Source of the DNA: a virus
Length of the DNA: 64,000 nucleotides
Direction: 5' to 3' (one strand)
Virus record (IMG/VR): IMGVR_UViG_3300014501_000002
Location: 32,001 to 96,000 of that record
Shown here: piece by piece, positions 2,105 through 24,053 of the stretch
Layout of the letters: every line of letters starts with the position of its first letter
How positions within the stretch are numbered: position 1 is the first letter of the stretch
The notes under the pieces: model-generated
The model's input: only the letters and a program-made list of their open reading frames with translations
Databases searched by the model: none
Told to the model about the DNA's origin: nothing
Made by a program: the position numbers and the translations under genes

Positions 2105-3475
2105 ATGTCTGGACCTTTAAATAGCTCGGCACCAACAACGTCCCAAATCGTCGGTGGCGTGTTTAACGCAACGACTCCGACTCCGGCTGATCGCCAAGCC
2201 TGCGCGTTCCAATTAGACAGCGAAGGAAATTTGCTTGTGCGCGTGGTCGGCGGTGGCGCCGGTGTCACAGAGCTCAATGGTTTAACGGGTAACCTGAACA
2301 TCACAGGCACGGGTATCACTGTTACGCCTGCAGGTACTAATATTGTGCTGTCCCTCCCAGCATCCGGCGTTACACCAACTTCTTACACAAATGCGAACAT
2401 TACGGTCAATGCCGCGGGCATTATCACCGCTGCGTCTAATGGATCAGCTGGCGGTGTAACGTCATTCATTGGACGTACGGGCGCGGTTGTCGCGGTCTCG
2501 GGAGACTACACCGTGGCACAGGTCACGGGCGCAGCACCGATTGCTTCGCCGACATTCACCGGCGTCCCAACCGGCCCGACCGCGGCCGCAGGAACCAATA
2601 CTACCCAACTGGCTACGACTGCTTTCGTGTTAGGCCAAAGTTTTATTACGGCGGCGACGGCCCCCGTTACTTCCGTTTTTGGACGCACCGGCGCTGTGCT
2701 TGCGGTAAGTGGAGATTACACGGTAGCTCAAGTCACTGGAGCCGCACCGATTGCTTCGCCGACATTCACTGGAACAGCAACCTTCGATTTGACATCTTCG
2801 AGCGTTGCAAACATTGCGACGTTTCAGCAACTGGGAAGTCAAAGCGGCTATGTGACTCTCAGTGCTCCGCTCGCATTTCAAACTGCCATCAGTTTTAACG
2901 ACAACACCAACGGTGCGGATTTCCTCGTATACCGTCCCGCAGGTACACAAGATTTATCGATTTTTTCCATCACAGCTGGAAACCAACTATATTTTGCCCA
3001 GGCGGGTGGGATTTATGTCGGTGCTGCGACGGGCGGCAGTGAGGGAGCAGGTACGGTCAACGTATCCAGCGGTTACTACGTCAATGGGGCAGCACTCGGT
3101 ACTTGGGTGAACTATACGCCCACTGTTACGGCGACCACGGGTACAATCACCACAGCCACTGCCACGGGGCGATATACTAAAATCGGAAAAACAGTTACCG
3201 TTGCAATCTCAGTGGATATCATAGCCTCTGGTTCAGGGGCAGGGAACGTATTAGCCAGTCTGCCATTCACCGCCGGGGCATCTTCGTCAACATTCCTTGT
3301 AGGGCGAGAGGCGGCAGTCACGGGGTTAGCCTTGATTGGTATCATAACCCCCAACACTACGGTCGCAAGTATTTTGTCCTTGTCACCTTCACCTAACAGC
3401 AACCTTTACGGCACCTATCCTGGTGTCAACGGATACGTGCTTCAAATTTCTGGAACATATGAATCGTCGACGTAA
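2105..3475 (+). CDS. Tail/head fibre protein, N-module family A copy 2
   Basis: Shared N module; fibre motifs YTNANITVNAAGIITAASNG, APIASPTFTGVPTGPTAAAGTNTTQLATTAFV, C-terminal GRYTKIGKTVTV domain. Confidence 0.8.
   Translation: MSGPLNSSAPTTSQIVGGVFNATTPTPADRQACAFQLDSEGNLLVRVVGGGAGVTELNGLTGNLNITGTGITVTPAGTNIVLSLPASGVTPTSYTNANITVNAAGIITAASNGSAGGVTSFIGRTGAVVAVSGDYTVAQVTGAAPIASPTFTGVPTGPTAAAGTNTTQLATTAFVLGQSFITAATAPVTSVFGRTGAVLAVSGDYTVAQVTGAAPIASPTFTGTATFDLTSSSVANIATFQQLGSQSGYVTLSAPLAFQTAISFNDNTNGADFLVYRPAGTQDLSIFSITAGNQLYFAQAGGIYVGAATGGSEGAGTVNVSSGYYVNGAALGTWVNYTPTVTATTGTITTATATGRYTKIGKTVTVAISVDIIASGSGAGNVLASLPFTAGASSSTFLVGREAAVTGLALIGIITPNTTVASILSLSPSPNSNLYGTYPGVNGYVLQISGTYESST
2452..2775 (+). 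repeat. Duplicated ~36 aa fibre repeat (VTSxxGRTGAVxAVSGDYTVAQVTGAAPIASPTFTG x2)
   Basis: Two near-identical peptide copies inside 2105..3475; boundaries approximate. Confidence 0.85.
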
Positions 3476-6330: not shown

Positions 6331-7050
6331 ATGTACACACTTCAGCAAACGATCAACTGGGCACGGACGTTCATCCAATACTCGCCTTTGACTGCGGGAA
6401 TAGGAAACGAACCCGCGATATCCATTGCGAACATGGTGTTGGATACAGTCACATCCGCGCCGATCACATGGCCGTGGAACCGCGCGGAATATACGGGGTT
6501 GACACTGACCGCCAATATACAGGACTACAACGTAGTTCCGATCACAGATTTCAATTTTCTTGAGGTGGTTAGTTTGAAGACTGTGGACGGTAAGTACTCG
6601 TACGAATTGAAGGATGTGTACAACACGAATATTCTCGGTGTGTCAGTCTCCGCACCGGCGCAACCCAAAGCGGTCGCGGTTAAGTTTTTTACTTATGGGG
6701 TAAGTGTCGCGCTTAGGTTCTTGAGCATTCCGGATCAGAATTACGCCGCGACCATAACGTATCAGAAGGTTATTACACCGTTCACTCTCCTGACGCAAGC
6801 ATGGCCCATTCCGGATCAGTACCTCGATATTTACAACAACCTTTTTCTTGCAGAAGCGTTTCAGTCGGTCGACGATGATCAGCAAGCTGCGCGGTATCGT
6901 ATGCGTGGCATCGCGGCATTGTTGTCGAAGGCGGAAGGCCTCAGCGAAATGCAGCGCAACGCATTCCTTGCTCAGTATCTCGCTCGTGAGAGTCAATCGC
7001 AAACTAATGTATCACGTACGCAACAGGGTCAGCAGGCCCGCGGAGTATAA
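6331..7050 (+). CDS. Head-tail adaptor-like protein (tail tubular A/P22 gp4-like position)
   Basis: WPWNR motif, size and position, TAATG coupling to the next gene. Confidence 0.6.
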   Translation: MYTLQQTINWARTFIQYSPLTAGIGNEPAISIANMVLDTVTSAPITWPWNRAEYTGLTLTANIQDYNVVPITDFNFLEVVSLKTVDGKYSYELKDVYNTNILGVSVSAPAQPKAVAVKFFTYGVSVALRFLSIPDQNYAATITYQKVITPFTLLTQAWPIPDQYLDIYNNLFLAEAFQSVDDDQQAARYRMRGIAALLSKAEGLSEMQRNAFLAQYLARESQSQTNVSRTQQGQQARGV

Positions 7051-10000
7051 TGCCTAATTTACTCGAGCAATCCGGAGCGCAACCACAGAAACAACCGAAG
7101 TTTGCGCCGCTTTTCATTGATAAAGCGTTTACCGGAATTTATACACAGCGCTCGGTGCTGCACGATCCTTCTGATTTAGCTACGTCGAGATTTTATGGCG
7201 GTCGTCCAGATGCTTTATGGCAGGGTTCGAACGTTGAACTAACGAATCGACTCACTTTGCAACGGCGCCCCGGCTTGTCGGAATTCTCTACAGTGACTTA
7301 TCCGACGCCTCCAGATCGCGGCTTCTCGTTCCAACTTCTCGACGGAACCATTCGCGTAATCATTGACACCGAATCCACCGGTGCTTTGAGCGTCACATCG
7401 GTTGCTACTTCTGTCGGCGGTAATGCGGTATATACCGGCACGTTCCCCGGAGGTGTGGGGAACACGTATGTCGGCATGAAGTTCACCGTTTCCGGATTCG
7501 TGGGTGCCGGTTCCGATTCAATATACACCGCCGTAGCTTCAACTGGCACAACCATCACTTTGAACAACCCGCACGCCACCGCGGAGACCGCAGCTGCGAG
7601 TATGGTGTCTTCAGGCGCCGTGTATTGGGATCAGCAGAACGGTTCGAAAACTTTGATATTCGCGAAAGGCACCGGCGCTGGACAGACTTATTTCGTTGCC
7701 GTCGCGGGCATTCTTTACATGGGCGATGGGGTCGAGACTTTTATCTATACGCCACTGAATCCGAACGCAATCGCATACGGATTCGGTTTGGTCGCGCCGG
7801 TCAATGGGCCGACGATTACCACCACAGAGTCAGCTGCTAGTGCGGTCGCATGGCAGGCGCACACATATTTTACCACGATGGGTTTGATCGTCGACTCTAA
7901 CGGAAACATTGAGCAATTATCCGGAGTCAACGCAGACGGAACTAACCCGACACTGCGATTCGGCACGAGTAGCAACGGACAACCTCCATGGAACCAAGCG
8001 ACCGGCGGAACAACTGCGGATGGTTCGGTCACATGGACCAACCAAGGCCCGATCGGCACGTGGGCTCCTAAGACGACATATCAGCCTGGTCAAGCCATCT
8101 ATGATCCGGGAACTAAGTGCGTGTTTATTCAGACGCACAATTTCGCGGCTACTTCTGGACCCTCGGCGCCACAGTGGAACCCAGCCCTTGTATCCACGGG
8201 CGCTCGCACGAGTGAACTGAACGCAGGCGGCGCAACCGCCGCGCGTTGGGGTAGCCTCGGACAATTGAACGTCACACCTACGTTGCTTAGATCGTGGACC
8301 GCCGGAGAGACGTACGGAACGTATGTCGAGCCGAGTACTGGAAACGATCCGAACGTATTGAATTGCGCGACGATTGAGCCCACACTTATTCTTCCTCCAC
8401 TTGCCGGGCAGAATGTTTACCTGCAAGGTGCGACTACCGGCGGCGTGACCGGAACCGGCGCGACTCCTCCTCCGTGGCAAACAGCTATCGGTCAGACGAC
8501 TACAGACGGCCAATTGACCTGGACAATGCTCGGTTCGGCGACATGGACTGCGCTCACTTCTTACACTGCATGGGTTTCTGGAGCAAACACCTTTTCGGTA
8601 ATTGAAGATACGAACGGCAACTTGCAAGTTTGCATGGCGAGTGGGATCAGCGGTCCTACTATCCCTGCAGCGTGGGGAACTACTTATGGTGCAACTACTT
8701 TGGATGGCTCCGGCACTTCTCAGATTACTTGGGTGTGCGTTGGTGCAGCAATTGCATGGGCTGCGAATACGATTTGGTATCTTCCGCTAGCTGGTTTCGT
8801 TCCTCCAAGCAAGAACCAACCTTACGGCAGCGCGTCTGTCATTGATACTCAGGGTGATCTTGAGTATGTGATTTCATCGGGTGAGTCAGGTTCTGTAACT
8901 CCGGCGTGGCAAGCGATCGGTTTCAATACGACTGATAACACGATTACGTGGTACAACTCGGGCGTCGCGCAGACCAACTCACTCGCGTGGACCCAAGGCT
9001 ACTCGTACGCATATTCATACTACAGTCGAACGACCACAGATTTCTACGACACCAATCCTCCTCCGGGACTCAACCTGATATATCCCGCGGGACTCGGCCA
9101 GCCAACTGGCTCCGAGACAGGTGCGATCAGCACTGCGTCACCCGCGACTGTAATCGGCGGCCCAAACACCGGCGCGATTAACACGGTTAGTGGGATCAGT
9201 TCACTTGATCCGGCCGTGGACACAATCATCATCTGGCGCTCGGCGGACGGCGGCGGATCGGACAACATGTTCTTCCTGACCGAGATTCCGAACCCTCTTC
9301 CGAACGGCGGACAACCCGTTGTGTGGCACTTCCAAGATTATCTCCCCGACGTAGCTATAGGAGTATTCCAAGGTTTGAACAACCTCATTCCGGCTCCGAT
9401 TGATGATGAGAATGATCCTCCTCCGAATAATTTCTTGCCGATGACGTATAACTTCCAACGTATTTGGGGAGCGTCCGGTAGCAGTGTGGTGTTCTCAGGC
9501 GGTCCTGATGTCATCACCGGAAACGCGAACTTCGCGTTCAACCCATCCGATACTTTCCCATACCTTGCGGACGTTATACGTATCGTAAAAACGTCTACGG
9601 GGCAGGTTGTGTTCTTGACTGACAGCATTGAGTTCTTGGCCGGGGGTCCGTTAACTGCGTCGTTCTACTCCGTGACACTCGGGCCGGGCATCGGACTTCG
9701 CTCATTCAATGCGCTCGATGTGTACGCAGGAGAAATTTATTTCGTATCATCTGACGGGCAATTCCGCGTAATCAATCCGTCTCTTAACATTTCTAACGCA
9801 GGATTCCCGATCGGAGATCAACTTGCCGTATTGAATACATCGAAAATTTATGTCGCGGTTCAACAGGCCGGTGTAGACAACGCAATTTACGTCGCGGATG
9901 GAAGTACTGGGTGGTGGCGTTGTAATCCACACCAAGTTCCCGGAAGCGCAAATGGTCCGGAGCCTATTTGGAGTCCGTTCGCGAATATCACCAACGGATG

Positions 10001-11114
10001 TCAGATGGTGCAGAGCATCGAAATTACTCCGGGCATCAAGAAGCTTCTCGTGGGTGGCGTCGGTGATAACGAGAATATATTATTCCGCGATTTGACTGTG
10101 TACACGGATGGGGTGGTAGTGTTAAACCCGTCGCCGATTAACTTGCTAACAACTTCTACATACGGTGTCCTGGCAGGTAGCACAATCACTAATTCCGGGA
10201 CAACTACCATCAATGGAGACTTAGGGTTGAGCCCGGGAAGCGCTGTCACGGGTGCTCCAGTAGTTACGGGCGCGACGAACATCGATAACCCAGCAGCGGT
10301 TCAGGCTCAGACGGATTTGGTCACGGCATACAATCAAGCCGCGGCTTTCCCAGGGGCTGTTACGATACCGACAGAATTAGGTGGGACGACTCTTCCACCC
10401 GGAGTTTATTCAAGTCTGTCTGGAACGTTCAGTATCACGACGGGGACGTTAACTCTCGATGCTGCAGGTAATCCAAACGCGTTCTGGATTTTTAAAACTG
10501 CGACTACGTTGGTGTTGGGCACGGGTACTTCGGTATCTTTGATAAATAAAGCGCAATCCCTTAACGTGTTCTGGCAAGTTGGTAGTTCCGCTACGATCGG
10601 GGTAGGCGCCGTGTTCCAAGGAACCATCCTTGCACTTACGTCTATTTCTGTAAATACCGGAGCGATACTGACTGGAAGATTGTTGGCTCAAACCGGTGCA
10701 GTGACATTGCTGGGTAACACTATCACCACGCCTAGCTCAACTGTTACCGGGCAGTACGACGCCTACTTTGTCATGGGTAGCATTATGCTCGCGCACCCAG
10801 GACAGATAGCCGTGCTCGGATTTATCGAAGGCGATTTCTCCGGAGTTGCGTATCAACCTCAAGTTGGTTTCTTACTGAACGAGATAGCGGGTTCGTTCGT
10901 GAACATGCCGCTTAAGCCTCAGTTCGATCCTCCGACAATTTACGGAGATACGATTGCGCCGACGTCATATTCTCCTAATCGGTATTATTTCGCTGCAACG
11001 GGTACACTCGCGCGCTGTCGTCACCTTCAGATTAAGGTCGATTTCGGAATTACCCCGAACGGTGACGAGCTTTATAACCTCACCATCTTTGGGCGGGTCT
11101 TCGTGGAAAATTAG
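7050..11114 (+). CDS. Tail nozzle/hub-like protein (tail tubular B/P22 gp10-like) with Trp-rich repeats and an inserted DUF3494 ice-binding-type domain
   Basis: N-terminal NVELTNRLTLQRRPG and C-terminal CRHLQIKVDFG...ELYNLTIFG resemble podoviral nozzle proteins; internal repeats and a DUF3494-like block. Confidence 0.7.
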   Translation: MPNLLEQSGAQPQKQPKFAPLFIDKAFTGIYTQRSVLHDPSDLATSRFYGGRPDALWQGSNVELTNRLTLQRRPGLSEFSTVTYPTPPDRGFSFQLLDGTIRVIIDTESTGALSVTSVATSVGGNAVYTGTFPGGVGNTYVGMKFTVSGFVGAGSDSIYTAVASTGTTITLNNPHATAETAAASMVSSGAVYWDQQNGSKTLIFAKGTGAGQTYFVAVAGILYMGDGVETFIYTPLNPNAIAYGFGLVAPVNGPTITTTESAASAVAWQAHTYFTTMGLIVDSNGNIEQLSGVNADGTNPTLRFGTSSNGQPPWNQATGGTTADGSVTWTNQGPIGTWAPKTTYQPGQAIYDPGTKCVFIQTHNFAATSGPSAPQWNPALVSTGARTSELNAGGATAARWGSLGQLNVTPTLLRSWTAGETYGTYVEPSTGNDPNVLNCATIEPTLILPPLAGQNVYLQGATTGGVTGTGATPPPWQTAIGQTTTDGQLTWTMLGSATWTALTSYTAWVSGANTFSVIEDTNGNLQVCMASGISGPTIPAAWGTTYGATTLDGSGTSQITWVCVGAAIAWAANTIWYLPLAGFVPPSKNQPYGSASVIDTQGDLEYVISSGESGSVTPAWQAIGFNTTDNTITWYNSGVAQTNSLAWTQGYSYAYSYYSRTTTDFYDTNPPPGLNLIYPAGLGQPTGSETGAISTASPATVIGGPNTGAINTVSGISSLDPAVDTIIIWRSADGGGSDNMFFLTEIPNPLPNGGQPVVWHFQDYLPDVAIGVFQGLNNLIPAPIDDENDPPPNNFLPMTYNFQRIWGASGSSVVFSGGPDVITGNANFAFNPSDTFPYLADVIRIVKTSTGQVVFLTDSIEFLAGGPLTASFYSVTLGPGIGLRSFNALDVYAGEIYFVSSDGQFRVINPSLNISNAGFPIGDQLAVLNTSKIYVAVQQAGVDNAIYVADGSTGWWRCNPHQVPGSANGPEPIWSPFANITNGCQMVQSIEITPGIKKLLVGGVGDNENILFRDLTVYTDGVVVLNPSPINLLTTSTYGVLAGSTITNSGTTTINGDLGLSPGSAVTGAPVVTGATNIDNPAAVQAQTDLVTAYNQAAAFPGAVTIPTELGGTTLPPGVYSSLSGTFSITTGTLTLDAAGNPNAFWIFKTATTLVLGTGTSVSLINKAQSLNVFWQVGSSATIGVGAVFQGTILALTSISVNTGAILTGRLLAQTGAVTLLGNTITTPSSTVTGQYDAYFVMGSIMLAHPGQIAVLGFIEGDFSGVAYQPQVGFLLNEIAGSFVNMPLKPQFDPPTIYGDTIAPTSYSPNRYYFAATGTLARCRHLQIKVDFGITPNGDELYNLTIFGRVFVEN
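7842..8962 (+). repeat. About five to six Trp-rich repeats (WxAxTxY...IxDxNGN...GxSG...PxW...GxTTxDGxxTW)
   Basis: Seen in the translation; resembles small aromatic carbohydrate-binding modules; boundaries approximate. Confidence 0.75.
10134..10735 (+). other. DUF3494 (PF11999) ice-binding-type beta-solenoid domain
   Basis: YGVLAGSTITNSGTTTINGDLGLSPG, AQTDLVTAYN, LGGTTLPPGVY, LTLDAAGNPNAFWIF, NVFWQVGSSATIG, FQGTILALTSIS, GRLLAQTGAVTL are the characteristic family motifs in order. Confidence 0.92.
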
Positions 11115-22718: not shown

Positions 22719-23078
22719 ATGTCAAGTTTATTGGCAGTGAATTACGATGAGCGCCACAAGGCGTTCGCGGATTTCAAACAGGATATTGAAACACGGCTCG
22801 AAGCATGGCTCTTGGAACATCCTGTCCAGGAACAGAAATTGCTCACCACAGCCTTCGGGAAAAACATGATCGTGAAAGTGCTGCCGTCCAATTTCGCGTA
22901 TGGCGGGTGGATCGTGTACAAGAACGGGGAGATTATGGAGACGTTCACCGGCGAGAACGCATGGTCGGACGCGACCGCGTACGGAAACAGTCTATTGAAT
23001 CCAACTCTGCAAGAAGAAAATCGACAGCGAGACGAACAAGAAGAGAGGCGTCGGAGAGACGAAGGTTACATTTATTAA
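22719..23078 (+). CDS. Hypothetical protein
   Basis: GAGGAGG RBS, 119 aa. Confidence 0.7.
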   Translation: MSSLLAVNYDERHKAFADFKQDIETRLEAWLLEHPVQEQKLLTTAFGKNMIVKVLPSNFAYGGWIVYKNGEIMETFTGENAWSDATAYGNSLLNPTLQEENRQRDEQEERRRRDEGYIY

Positions 23079-23084
23079 GCTTAG

Positions 23085-23132
23085 GGTGCGGGCACAGTAG
23101 ATCCCAGAAATGGGCACGTGTCATCCCGCACC
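23085..23132 (+). repeat. Copy 1 of 40-nt structured element (other copy at 62780..62827 on - strand)
   Basis: CGGGCACAGTAGATCCCAGAAATGGGCACgtgtCATCCCG at 23089-23128 matches 37/40 to the reverse complement of 62784-62823. Confidence 0.85.
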
Positions 23133-23138
23133 ACAATT

Positions 23139-24053
23139 TTAAAGAACGGGCACACTCGATCCCAGAATATCAAACCCCAGCCCGGCCTTTTTGGCCCATT
23201 CCTTGCGCAGCGTAGTGTTCTGTGCAAGCTTAGAATACCGATCGGTGATATCTCGGTTGGCCGAGTGGCCGATCCAGAACTTCAGGATGTCCTCGGGTGT
23301 CCCGACTTCCCGGAGCCGCGTGGTGCGAAACCGGCGAAGGCTGTGATGTCCAGGCACGCCGTCCGCTTTCAGCGTCCGGTACGTATTATCACGTTTCATG
23401 TTGAATAGTTTGCCTGTCGGGCCACTTATCGCGCGCAGCGTATCACTGATCTCTGGGATGATATCCACCTCGCGCGTGCCTGCGGCCGTCTTCGGCGTCG
23501 CGCTTCGTCCGTCCTGTACCTGATCCCGGATAATCAGCTTGCCTTGCTCTGGGAGCCAGAACGACCCTTTGCCGTCGTCCAGGCCCGCCCGTAGCGCCAA
23601 GCATTCGCTGATTCTAAGCCCAGTACCAGCCAGAGTGATATACAGAGGCTTAAACAGCCCTTCCGCCTCGGAAATCGCCTCCTGGAGGGCTTCCCGGCCT
23701 ATGCTAGGCGATGATTGATCCGATGGATTCACTTCCGGAAGGTCGATAAAGTCTGCATTCCACGTACGCGGGTACAATTCGTTGCCATTCGCGTCCGTCG
23801 CGGAGGCTATAACCCCCTTTAAACAGTTCACGATACCACACACCGACGCCGGTTTTAGTTCCCCGGCGATCGAAGACACAAACTTCTTCATGCTTCCGTT
23901 ATCGAAGTTCGCCAAGTCTTCGGCGCCGCAGAGGGGAACGATCCATGTCCGGAGGTAACTCTGGTATCTTTGCAGGGTTCCCGGCTTGGGCGGCTTCCGG
24001 CGCCGAGACTCTAAGGCTTTGATGAATGCGACCGATTGTTCTTGGATGGTCAT
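23139..24053 (-). CDS. int: Tyrosine recombinase/integrase
   Basis: Catalytic residues TGLRISE (R), TPKT (K), HSLRR (HxxR), IGH, DRYS (Y); ATG 24053 with GGAGG RBS. Confidence 0.9.
   Translation of the reverse strand: MTIQEQSVAFIKALESRRRKPPKPGTLQRYQSYLRTWIVPLCGAEDLANFDNGSMKKFVSSIAGELKPASVCGIVNCLKGVIASATDANGNELYPRTWNADFIDLPEVNPSDQSSPSIGREALQEAISEAEGLFKPLYITLAGTGLRISECLALRAGLDDGKGSFWLPEQGKLIIRDQVQDGRSATPKTAAGTREVDIIPEISDTLRAISGPTGKLFNMKRDNTYRTLKADGVPGHHSLRRFRTTRLREVGTPEDILKFWIGHSANRDITDRYSKLAQNTTLRKEWAKKAGLGFDILGSSVPVL

Follow-up and report, generated by a model that had tools for sequence, protein, structure and literature searches.

A protein that, on its modelled fold, is a podovirus tail nozzle carries a complete DUF3494 domain spliced into a short linker near its C-terminus. 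Among the ice-binding folds of microbes, DUF3494 is the most common. The gene in question, P0001, codes for 1354 amino acids (aa) and lies in a stretch of viral DNA of 64,000 nucleotides (nt), referred to here as the window, which corresponds to bases 32001-96000 of the 111,514-bp IMG/VR virus record IMGVR_UViG_3300014501_000002. The inserted domain may serve as an accessory adhesion module on the outside of the tail. Within the window the gene and its parts are arranged as follows, with the basis of each assignment in brackets.

7050..11114, + strand: tail nozzle / tail hub gene by predicted fold, 1354 aa (homologues and fold matches)
7050..8966, + strand: N-terminal part, aa 1-639 (consensus and invariant columns, BLAST high-scoring segment pairs (HSPs), propeller alignments)
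8967..10109, + strand: β-propeller core, aa 640-1020 (57-75% identity among homologues)
10110..10754, + strand: inserted DUF3494 / IBP-1 β-solenoid cassette, aa 1021-1235 (Pfam, PDB search, fold, homologue alignment)
10755..11114, + strand: conserved C-terminal β domain, 119 aa (aligns to the C-terminal ends of nozzle structures)

A complete DUF3494 domain in a tail protein

A first-pass annotation of this DNA had claimed a complete DUF3494 domain, and a profile search bore this out. The PF11999 (Ice_binding) profile matched aa 1040-1226 of P0001 (nt 10167-10727) over profile positions 1-208 of 208 with an E-value of 1.8e-55, and the score of 188.3 bits against a cut-off of 28.7 places the whole domain in the family. 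Searching the PDB with phmmer returned 25 DUF3494 ice-binding or antifreeze structures, with EfcIBP (6EIO) as the best match at 2e-41. In an AlphaFold2 model of aa 620-1354 (predicted local distance difference test (pLDDT) 73), residues 405-615 of the model matched DUF3494 structures with Z scores of 20-23. Superposition of the insert with VIA-align gave a Z score of 22.8 and a root-mean-square deviation (rmsd) of 2.7 over 194 residues for 6EIO, and a Z score of 22.2 for 7BWY. A single long helix at model residues 462-480 lies amid β coils, so that the model displays a β-solenoid braced by a helix.

The resemblance to EfcIBP (6EIO) and AnpIBP (7BWX/7BWY) extends over the full-length PF11999 match, the discontinuous β-solenoid with its long flanking helix, the absence of a capping head region and the Thr/Ser-rich composition (Z 22-23, rmsd 2.5-2.8 over ~190 residues, 38-43% identity to the insert). 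Threonine and serine make up 27% of the domain and charged residues 3.7%. In contrast to these free-standing, secreted proteins, the phage copy is internal, has no signal peptide and is tethered within a virion protein, and any ice activity of it is putative. Located at aa 1021-1235 of 1354, the domain is not a secreted or surface-anchored free protein, and any exposure would come through virion display. At both ends of the insert the pLDDT falls below 50 (model residues 398-424 and 607-615, corresponding to aa ~1017-1043 and 1226-1234), and these segments may be read as flexible tethers. A passage of PMC11645318 describes the first and last coils of the DUF3494 fold as adjacent; the two ends of the domain should therefore lie close together, which fits insertion into a loop. 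Taken together, the insert is a complete, cap-less DUF3494 (IBP-1) β-solenoid that, with two flexible linkers, is spliced into a 4-residue linker of the nozzle.

Clean insertion and purifying selection

With aa 640-1030 as query, the homologue search returned at least 384 metagenomic proteins of 1050-1490 aa. PF11999 was present in only 3 of the best 120 nozzle homologues, P0001 itself included. In 112 of the 116 classifiable homologues, the equivalents of positions 1020 and 1236 are separated by only 3-8 residues (mostly 4). As this short linker occupies the place of aa 1021-1235 in P0001, the DUF3494 domain is a clean insertion. Thus, the in-frame insertion in a core tail protein proposed by the first-pass annotation was confirmed. 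Its flanks (...LTVYTDG and QYDAYFVMG...) were correct, and its boundaries (10134-10735) agree with the aligned ones (10110-10754) within ~25 nt. The domain is a variable insertion, being absent in 112/116 homologues, replaced by another insert in P0040 and found in scattered carriers.

A patchy distribution, with most homologues devoid of the insert, might also be expected if the domain were a product of chimeric assembly, or a recently gained and functionless passenger in the course of being lost. However, independent Logan contigs from four other permafrost and peat runs, none of which is the likely source, span both junctions with 100% identity. These mismatch-free contigs ruled out an assembly chimera. 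The GC content of the insert (0.515) is close to that of the flanks (0.531), and recent horizontal acquisition was dropped for this reason. Furthermore, the full-length PF11999 match is intact even in lineages whose domains share only 54% identity. In comparison with the L007 nozzle, which is 91% identical, the ratio of nonsynonymous to synonymous substitution rates (dN/dS) was 0.059 for the insert (dN 0.034, dS 0.57), 0.056 for the propeller core and 0.059 for the C-terminal domain. Hence, purifying selection acts on the insert as strongly as on the core of the nozzle, and an artefact or neutral passenger is hardly credible. Gaps in contig coverage at 10516-10611 and 10180-10275 reflect short Logan contigs only and carry no meaning.

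The carrier protein folds like a podovirus nozzle

Apart from PF11999, nothing in Pfam or PHROG matched P0001; its relation to nozzles is one of fold. The parts flanking the insert (residues 162-735 of the aa 620-1354 model) matched P22 gp10 with a Z score of 16.4 over 308 residues, and also Sf6 gp8, Pan3, crAss001 gp44, GP4, Pa223, SU10 gp17 and T7 gp12. P0007, a colinear insert-less homologue of 1126 aa, was modelled at full length (pLDDT 84.5, predicted template modelling score 0.69) and gave the following alignments.

Pa223 tail: Z 27.2, 445/512 residues aligned
crAss001 muzzle: Z 26.1, 550 residues aligned
P22 gp10: Z 24.4, 426/471 residues aligned
SU10 gp17: Z 24.1, 440 residues aligned
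T7 gp12: Z ~19, ~446/793 residues aligned

The alignments span chain residues 2-513 of Pa223, 2-472 of P22 gp10 and 2-791 of T7 gp12. They assign to the P0007 model the nozzle architecture, a platform built from the N- and C-termini together with a central β-propeller. This N/C-split platform with β-propeller and the near end-to-end alignment (Z 19-27) are shared with the nozzles T7 gp12, P22 gp10, Sf6 gp8, SU10 gp17, phicrAss001 muzzle gp44, Pa223, VP1 and Pan3. In P0001, aa ~1-110 form a conserved N-terminus comprising the platform's N-terminal portion and the entry into the propeller. The region that follows within the N-terminal part is a Trp-rich β region of variable length, in which BLAST HSPs break or shift among homologues. 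Propellers of the WD40 type align to P0007 from residue ~58-74 to ~1000, yet with only ~280 residues aligned. This points to a large insertion within the propeller, namely the Trp-rich variable region, as in the nozzles of SU10 and crAss001, whose propellers likewise carry a large internal insertion. The C-terminal region aligns to the ends of P22 gp10 (to residue 472), T7 gp12 (to 791) and SU10 gp17 (to 1005).

The phage protein differs from the known nozzles in that sequence similarity to them is undetectable (9-15% identity in structural alignments) and in that no solved or described nozzle with a DUF3494 domain was found. Judged by these models, the carrier protein is a podovirus nozzle / tail hub of the hexameric type. 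The fold matches of the insert flanks and of P0007 thus agree with the nozzle-like protein named at the outset.

The only nozzle homologue from a cultured phage was gp19 of Tunturiibacter phage Tunturi_3 (PP885686, L006:15001-18411), with 34% identity over 49% of the query. Tunturi_3 (97.6 kb, 51% GC), a distant relative, is the phage whose morphology is known, that of a podovirus; it was obtained from soil of the Arctic tundra and infects a member of the Acidobacteriota (PMC11924767). Its gp19 differs in being 1136 aa long, lacking the insert and being annotated as 'head decoration protein'. As the sole PHROG match found for gp19 is a local one of 60 aa to a head-decoration family (aa 254-312), and gp19 is homologous to the nozzle, this GenBank label looks like a mis-annotation.

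Directly upstream of the nozzle lies an ORF (open reading frame) whose stop codon overlaps the nozzle start codon.

6331..7050, + strand: adaptor-like protein, 239 aa (ORF list; ESM Atlas features)

Its ESM Atlas feature scores to clusters of PF24175 (SU10_adaptor) were 0.97-0.98, and all ten best matches belong to that family. Scans with hmmscan against Pfam and PHROG gave no match, and phmmer against the PDB nothing significant. The adaptor assignment is taken as a lead only.

The insert occupies a probable display site

The insert follows the last strand of the propeller and precedes the conserved C-terminal platform domain of 119 aa. At the equivalent position, T7 gp12 has an external fibre dock. 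In the SU10 nozzle, blade 1 is where the chain both enters and exits the propeller, and it is also the blade from which the loop that docks the short fibre extends; blades 1-3 lie at a large distance from the axis of the tail (PMC9509320). Since the splice point coincides with the fibre-dock position of T7 gp12 and with the blade-1 dock region of SU10 gp17, six copies should point outward. Six solenoids per particle would thus probably project away from the DNA channel.

Accessory domains are inserted in known nozzles as well, Ig-like domains in SU10 (PMC9509320) and Ig-like and crass domains in crAss001, and they alter surface properties. The exit from propeller to platform in podovirus nozzles may be regarded as a display site for swappable accessory domains. 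In T7 gp12 the same exit carries a jelly-roll fibre dock where the phage nozzle has DUF3494.

Topologically, the insertion point corresponds to the dock for fibres in T7 gp12 and to the fibre-dock region of SU10, which is also compatible with a structural role, in which the solenoid would act as docking platform or brace for a fibre, a spike or a neighbouring subunit. Several large tail-region genes without annotation follow the nozzle. In contrast, the DUF3494 fold is unrelated to jelly-roll docks, and the distribution of the cassette described below argues against such a role.

The cassette moves independently of the nozzle

A tree of the nozzle flanks was calculated with the insert columns excluded. 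Each of the three full-length carriers adjoins insert-less relatives of 77-85% identity, so that three changes are needed, and the approximately unbiased (AU) test rejected monophyly of the carriers (p 0.00024, difference in log-likelihood 348). In a tree of 126 DUF3494 domains, on the other hand, all seven nozzle inserts (P0001, L007, P0008, L010, P0116 and the fragments P0122 and P0125) formed exactly one clade. Five of the seven share a branch with 95% support in the Shimodaira-Hasegawa-like approximate likelihood ratio test (SH-aLRT); their junction with P0116 and P0125 received 75% and was flagged as a meeting of long branches. A single clade of inserts in scattered carriers indicates that the domain was captured once and was afterwards either transferred by recombination or repeatedly and precisely lost.

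A docking or bracing element is improbable in view of these data, because the closest relatives (77-85% flank identity) do without the insert and the cassette moves independently of its flanks. Moreover, DUF3494 is also present at a second nozzle site and within small proteins of other kinds.

At exactly the same linker, P0040 carries an unrelated Thr/Ser/Ala-rich insert of 215 aa (aa ~1047-1261). It matched no Pfam family, and its best ESM Atlas score of only 0.76 was uninformative. The linker of the nozzle behaves as a display hot spot.

Four further nozzles of 1409-1440 aa (P0298, P0302, P0303 and P0304) contain a divergent DUF3494 domain at aa ~87-298 that is 35-38% identical to the P0001 copy. 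This second site lies between the equivalents of P0001 aa 75 and 84, close to the entry of the chain into the propeller. The second-site domain is an independent capture, so that at least two captures took place within the nozzle family.

DUF3494 is also found in smaller proteins of ~310-355 aa on viral contigs, namely P0127 (L011:5701-6774, IMGVR_UViG_3300046698_000387), P0123 and P0124. They consist of a conserved N-terminal module of ~60 aa, a Gly-rich linker and a DUF3494 domain that shares 62-68% identity with the one in the nozzle. On viral contig L011, the genes next to that of the 354-aa DUF3494 protein matched no PHROG family.

Free-standing relatives with 52-68% identity are surface proteins fused to Big domains, LPXTG signals, type IX secretion system (T9SS) signals or subtilases. 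Some of them are named from Actinomadura, Frankia and Amycolatopsis. These genera are ordinary soil actinomycetes, and ice binding can therefore not be deduced from the fold by itself.

Possible function of the displayed solenoid

We favour, with a probability of about 0.5, the reading that the insert acts as an externally displayed accessory adhesion module for a surface or host polymer. The flat, Thr/Ser-rich and nearly uncharged solenoid would hold the tail to an extended surface, the likeliest candidate being a polysaccharide of the host envelope or a slime layer, and would thereby raise adsorption ahead of primary fibre engagement. On this view, the patchy distribution of the cassette would stem from the swapping of modules that is usual in adsorption hardware. 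A general adhesin role is suggested by the location of the domain on the adsorption apparatus, by the behaviour of the cassette, which resembles that of receptor-binding modules, and by the acceptance of an alternative insert at the same site. A general binding role is also indicated by the free-standing relatives (52-68% identity), which are surface proteins. In the literature, DUF3494 is described in substrate-binding as well as in ice-binding proteins. Ice is the main rival ligand.

Several points weigh against the adhesion module. No PF11999 ligand other than ice was found demonstrated in the searchable literature, and the closest solved structures, EfcIBP and AnpIBP (39-43% identity), are described as ice binders. 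The DNA comes from permafrost and peat. About 96% of the homologous nozzles have no insert at all, which makes the module dispensable for infection. The outward exposure of the solenoids is inferred solely from topology. Finally, the host is probably a member of the Acidobacteriota, a suggestion based on the 34%-identical nozzle of Tunturi_3 and one label of a metagenome-assembled genome, and on nothing else.

Virion-borne ice binding, by which the six solenoids would adsorb to ice crystal planes, is a tentative alternative that we consider rather unlikely. The particles might be kept where ice meets water, or in liquid veins, at which hosts are concentrated, or growth and recrystallisation of ice might be blocked locally around the tail during freeze-thaw cycles in permafrost and peat. 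The occurrence of the phage DNA in permafrost and peat metagenomes, the origin of the nearest cultured relative in Arctic tundra and the strong purifying selection on the insert are in line with this, as is the fact that EfcIBP and AnpIBP, two ice-binding proteins of the cap-less kind, are the best matches in sequence and fold (Z 22-23, 38-43% identity). Their subgroup shows two Thr/Ser rows on the b face (PMC7783341). The composition of the domain, with its 27% Thr+Ser and 3.7% charged residues, is compatible with ice binding, but not diagnostic. In contrast, Frankia, Actinomadura and Amycolatopsis are named as sources of close free-standing relatives, the insert is missing from most related nozzles, and P0040 has an unrelated domain at this very site. 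Bulk ice cannot be affected by six tethered copies on a particle, which leaves only adhesion or a local effect as plausible. Ice activity is not readable from a DUF3494 sequence, and reading an ice-binding face from the sequence was rejected because the ice-binding sites of this fold are not conserved motifs.

The same phage encodes a second DUF3494 protein of 383 aa outside the window (L003:5448-6599; G000:C1:5448-6599, + strand), which also speaks for the modularity of the cassette. PF11999 matched its aa 87-275 at 3e-33; Gly/Ser linkers flank the domain on either side, and there is no obvious signal peptide. Its DUF3494 domain shares 39% identity with that of the nozzle, and its branch in the tree of domains is very long. 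An ice-binding virion might be imagined in which the six nozzle solenoids and this second protein allow permafrost and peat phages to adhere to ice or to resist freeze-thaw damage, the cassette being traded among soil phages for environmental persistence rather than for host range. We regard this extended version as unlikely.

Relation to known systems

The first-pass annotation knew of no described case of a DUF3494 domain integrated in a virion, and our full-text literature search, combining DUF3494 or ice-binding with phage, virus or tail, likewise found no DUF3494 built into a virion protein. A tblastn search with the 215-aa domain against 50,697 GenBank phage records returned nothing at an E-value of 1e-3; the low-complexity filter was on, and absence is not proven by this result. 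A DUF3494 homologue is mentioned in Synechococcus phage S-SKS1. A parallel is provided by PF11999 'ice-binding-like' genes of viral contigs from the Arctic (Rahlff et al. 2024, PMC11515562), which likewise belong to this Pfam family and to phage DNA from a cold habitat. However, those genes were read as host-protecting auxiliary metabolic genes on marine viral operational taxonomic units and not as structural domains of tail proteins. Inserted accessory domains in nozzles and the DUF3494 fold are thus known already, while no description of a DUF3494 domain built into a nozzle turned up in the searchable literature.

The finding places a DUF3494 domain, fixed under strong purifying selection, on what is probably the outside of a phage infection machine. 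Within one nozzle family, such domains were captured at least two times and then traded among lineages. A single domain of 215 aa, with natural relatives that do or do not carry it, provides a compact and testable system. It bears on the question of whether the DUF3494 fold acts in surface adhesion generally or truly binds ice, and on structural adaptations to ice in viruses of freezing soils.

Source genome and neighbouring genes

The IMG/VR record from which the window is taken was rated complete by CheckV, and its ends are direct terminal repeats of 88 bp. The portal is of the SU10 type (PF23899 at 9e-24). The phage is podovirus-like, with a genome of 111.5 kb, direct terminal repeats and an SU10-type portal. 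At least 10 metagenome runs from permafrost and peat contain this stretch of DNA, each with half or more of its words.

The large neighbouring ORFs (373, 239, 677, 752, 576 and 687 aa) matched no family in PHROG or Pfam scans. Five genes upstream of the nozzle, at 2105-3475 (+ strand) of the window, a 456-aa protein weakly and locally matched several tail fibre families of PHROG, among them phrog_9625 (4.5e-15) and phrog_454. Upstream of the window, nucleotide-sugar genes are located at G000:C1:11620-18126 (L003), coding for a GDP-mannose 4,6-dehydratase (PF16363, 6e-137), an epimerase/dehydratase fusion and a DegT-type aminotransferase. Downstream of the portal, at G000:C1:27247-29347 (L004:7247-9347), an ORF for an HNH endonuclease (phrog_5046, 5e-19) stands just after a 414-aa ORF without family. 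At ~23000-24000 of the window, the virion module on the + strand gives way to a long block on the - strand, as seen from gene orientation and GC skew.

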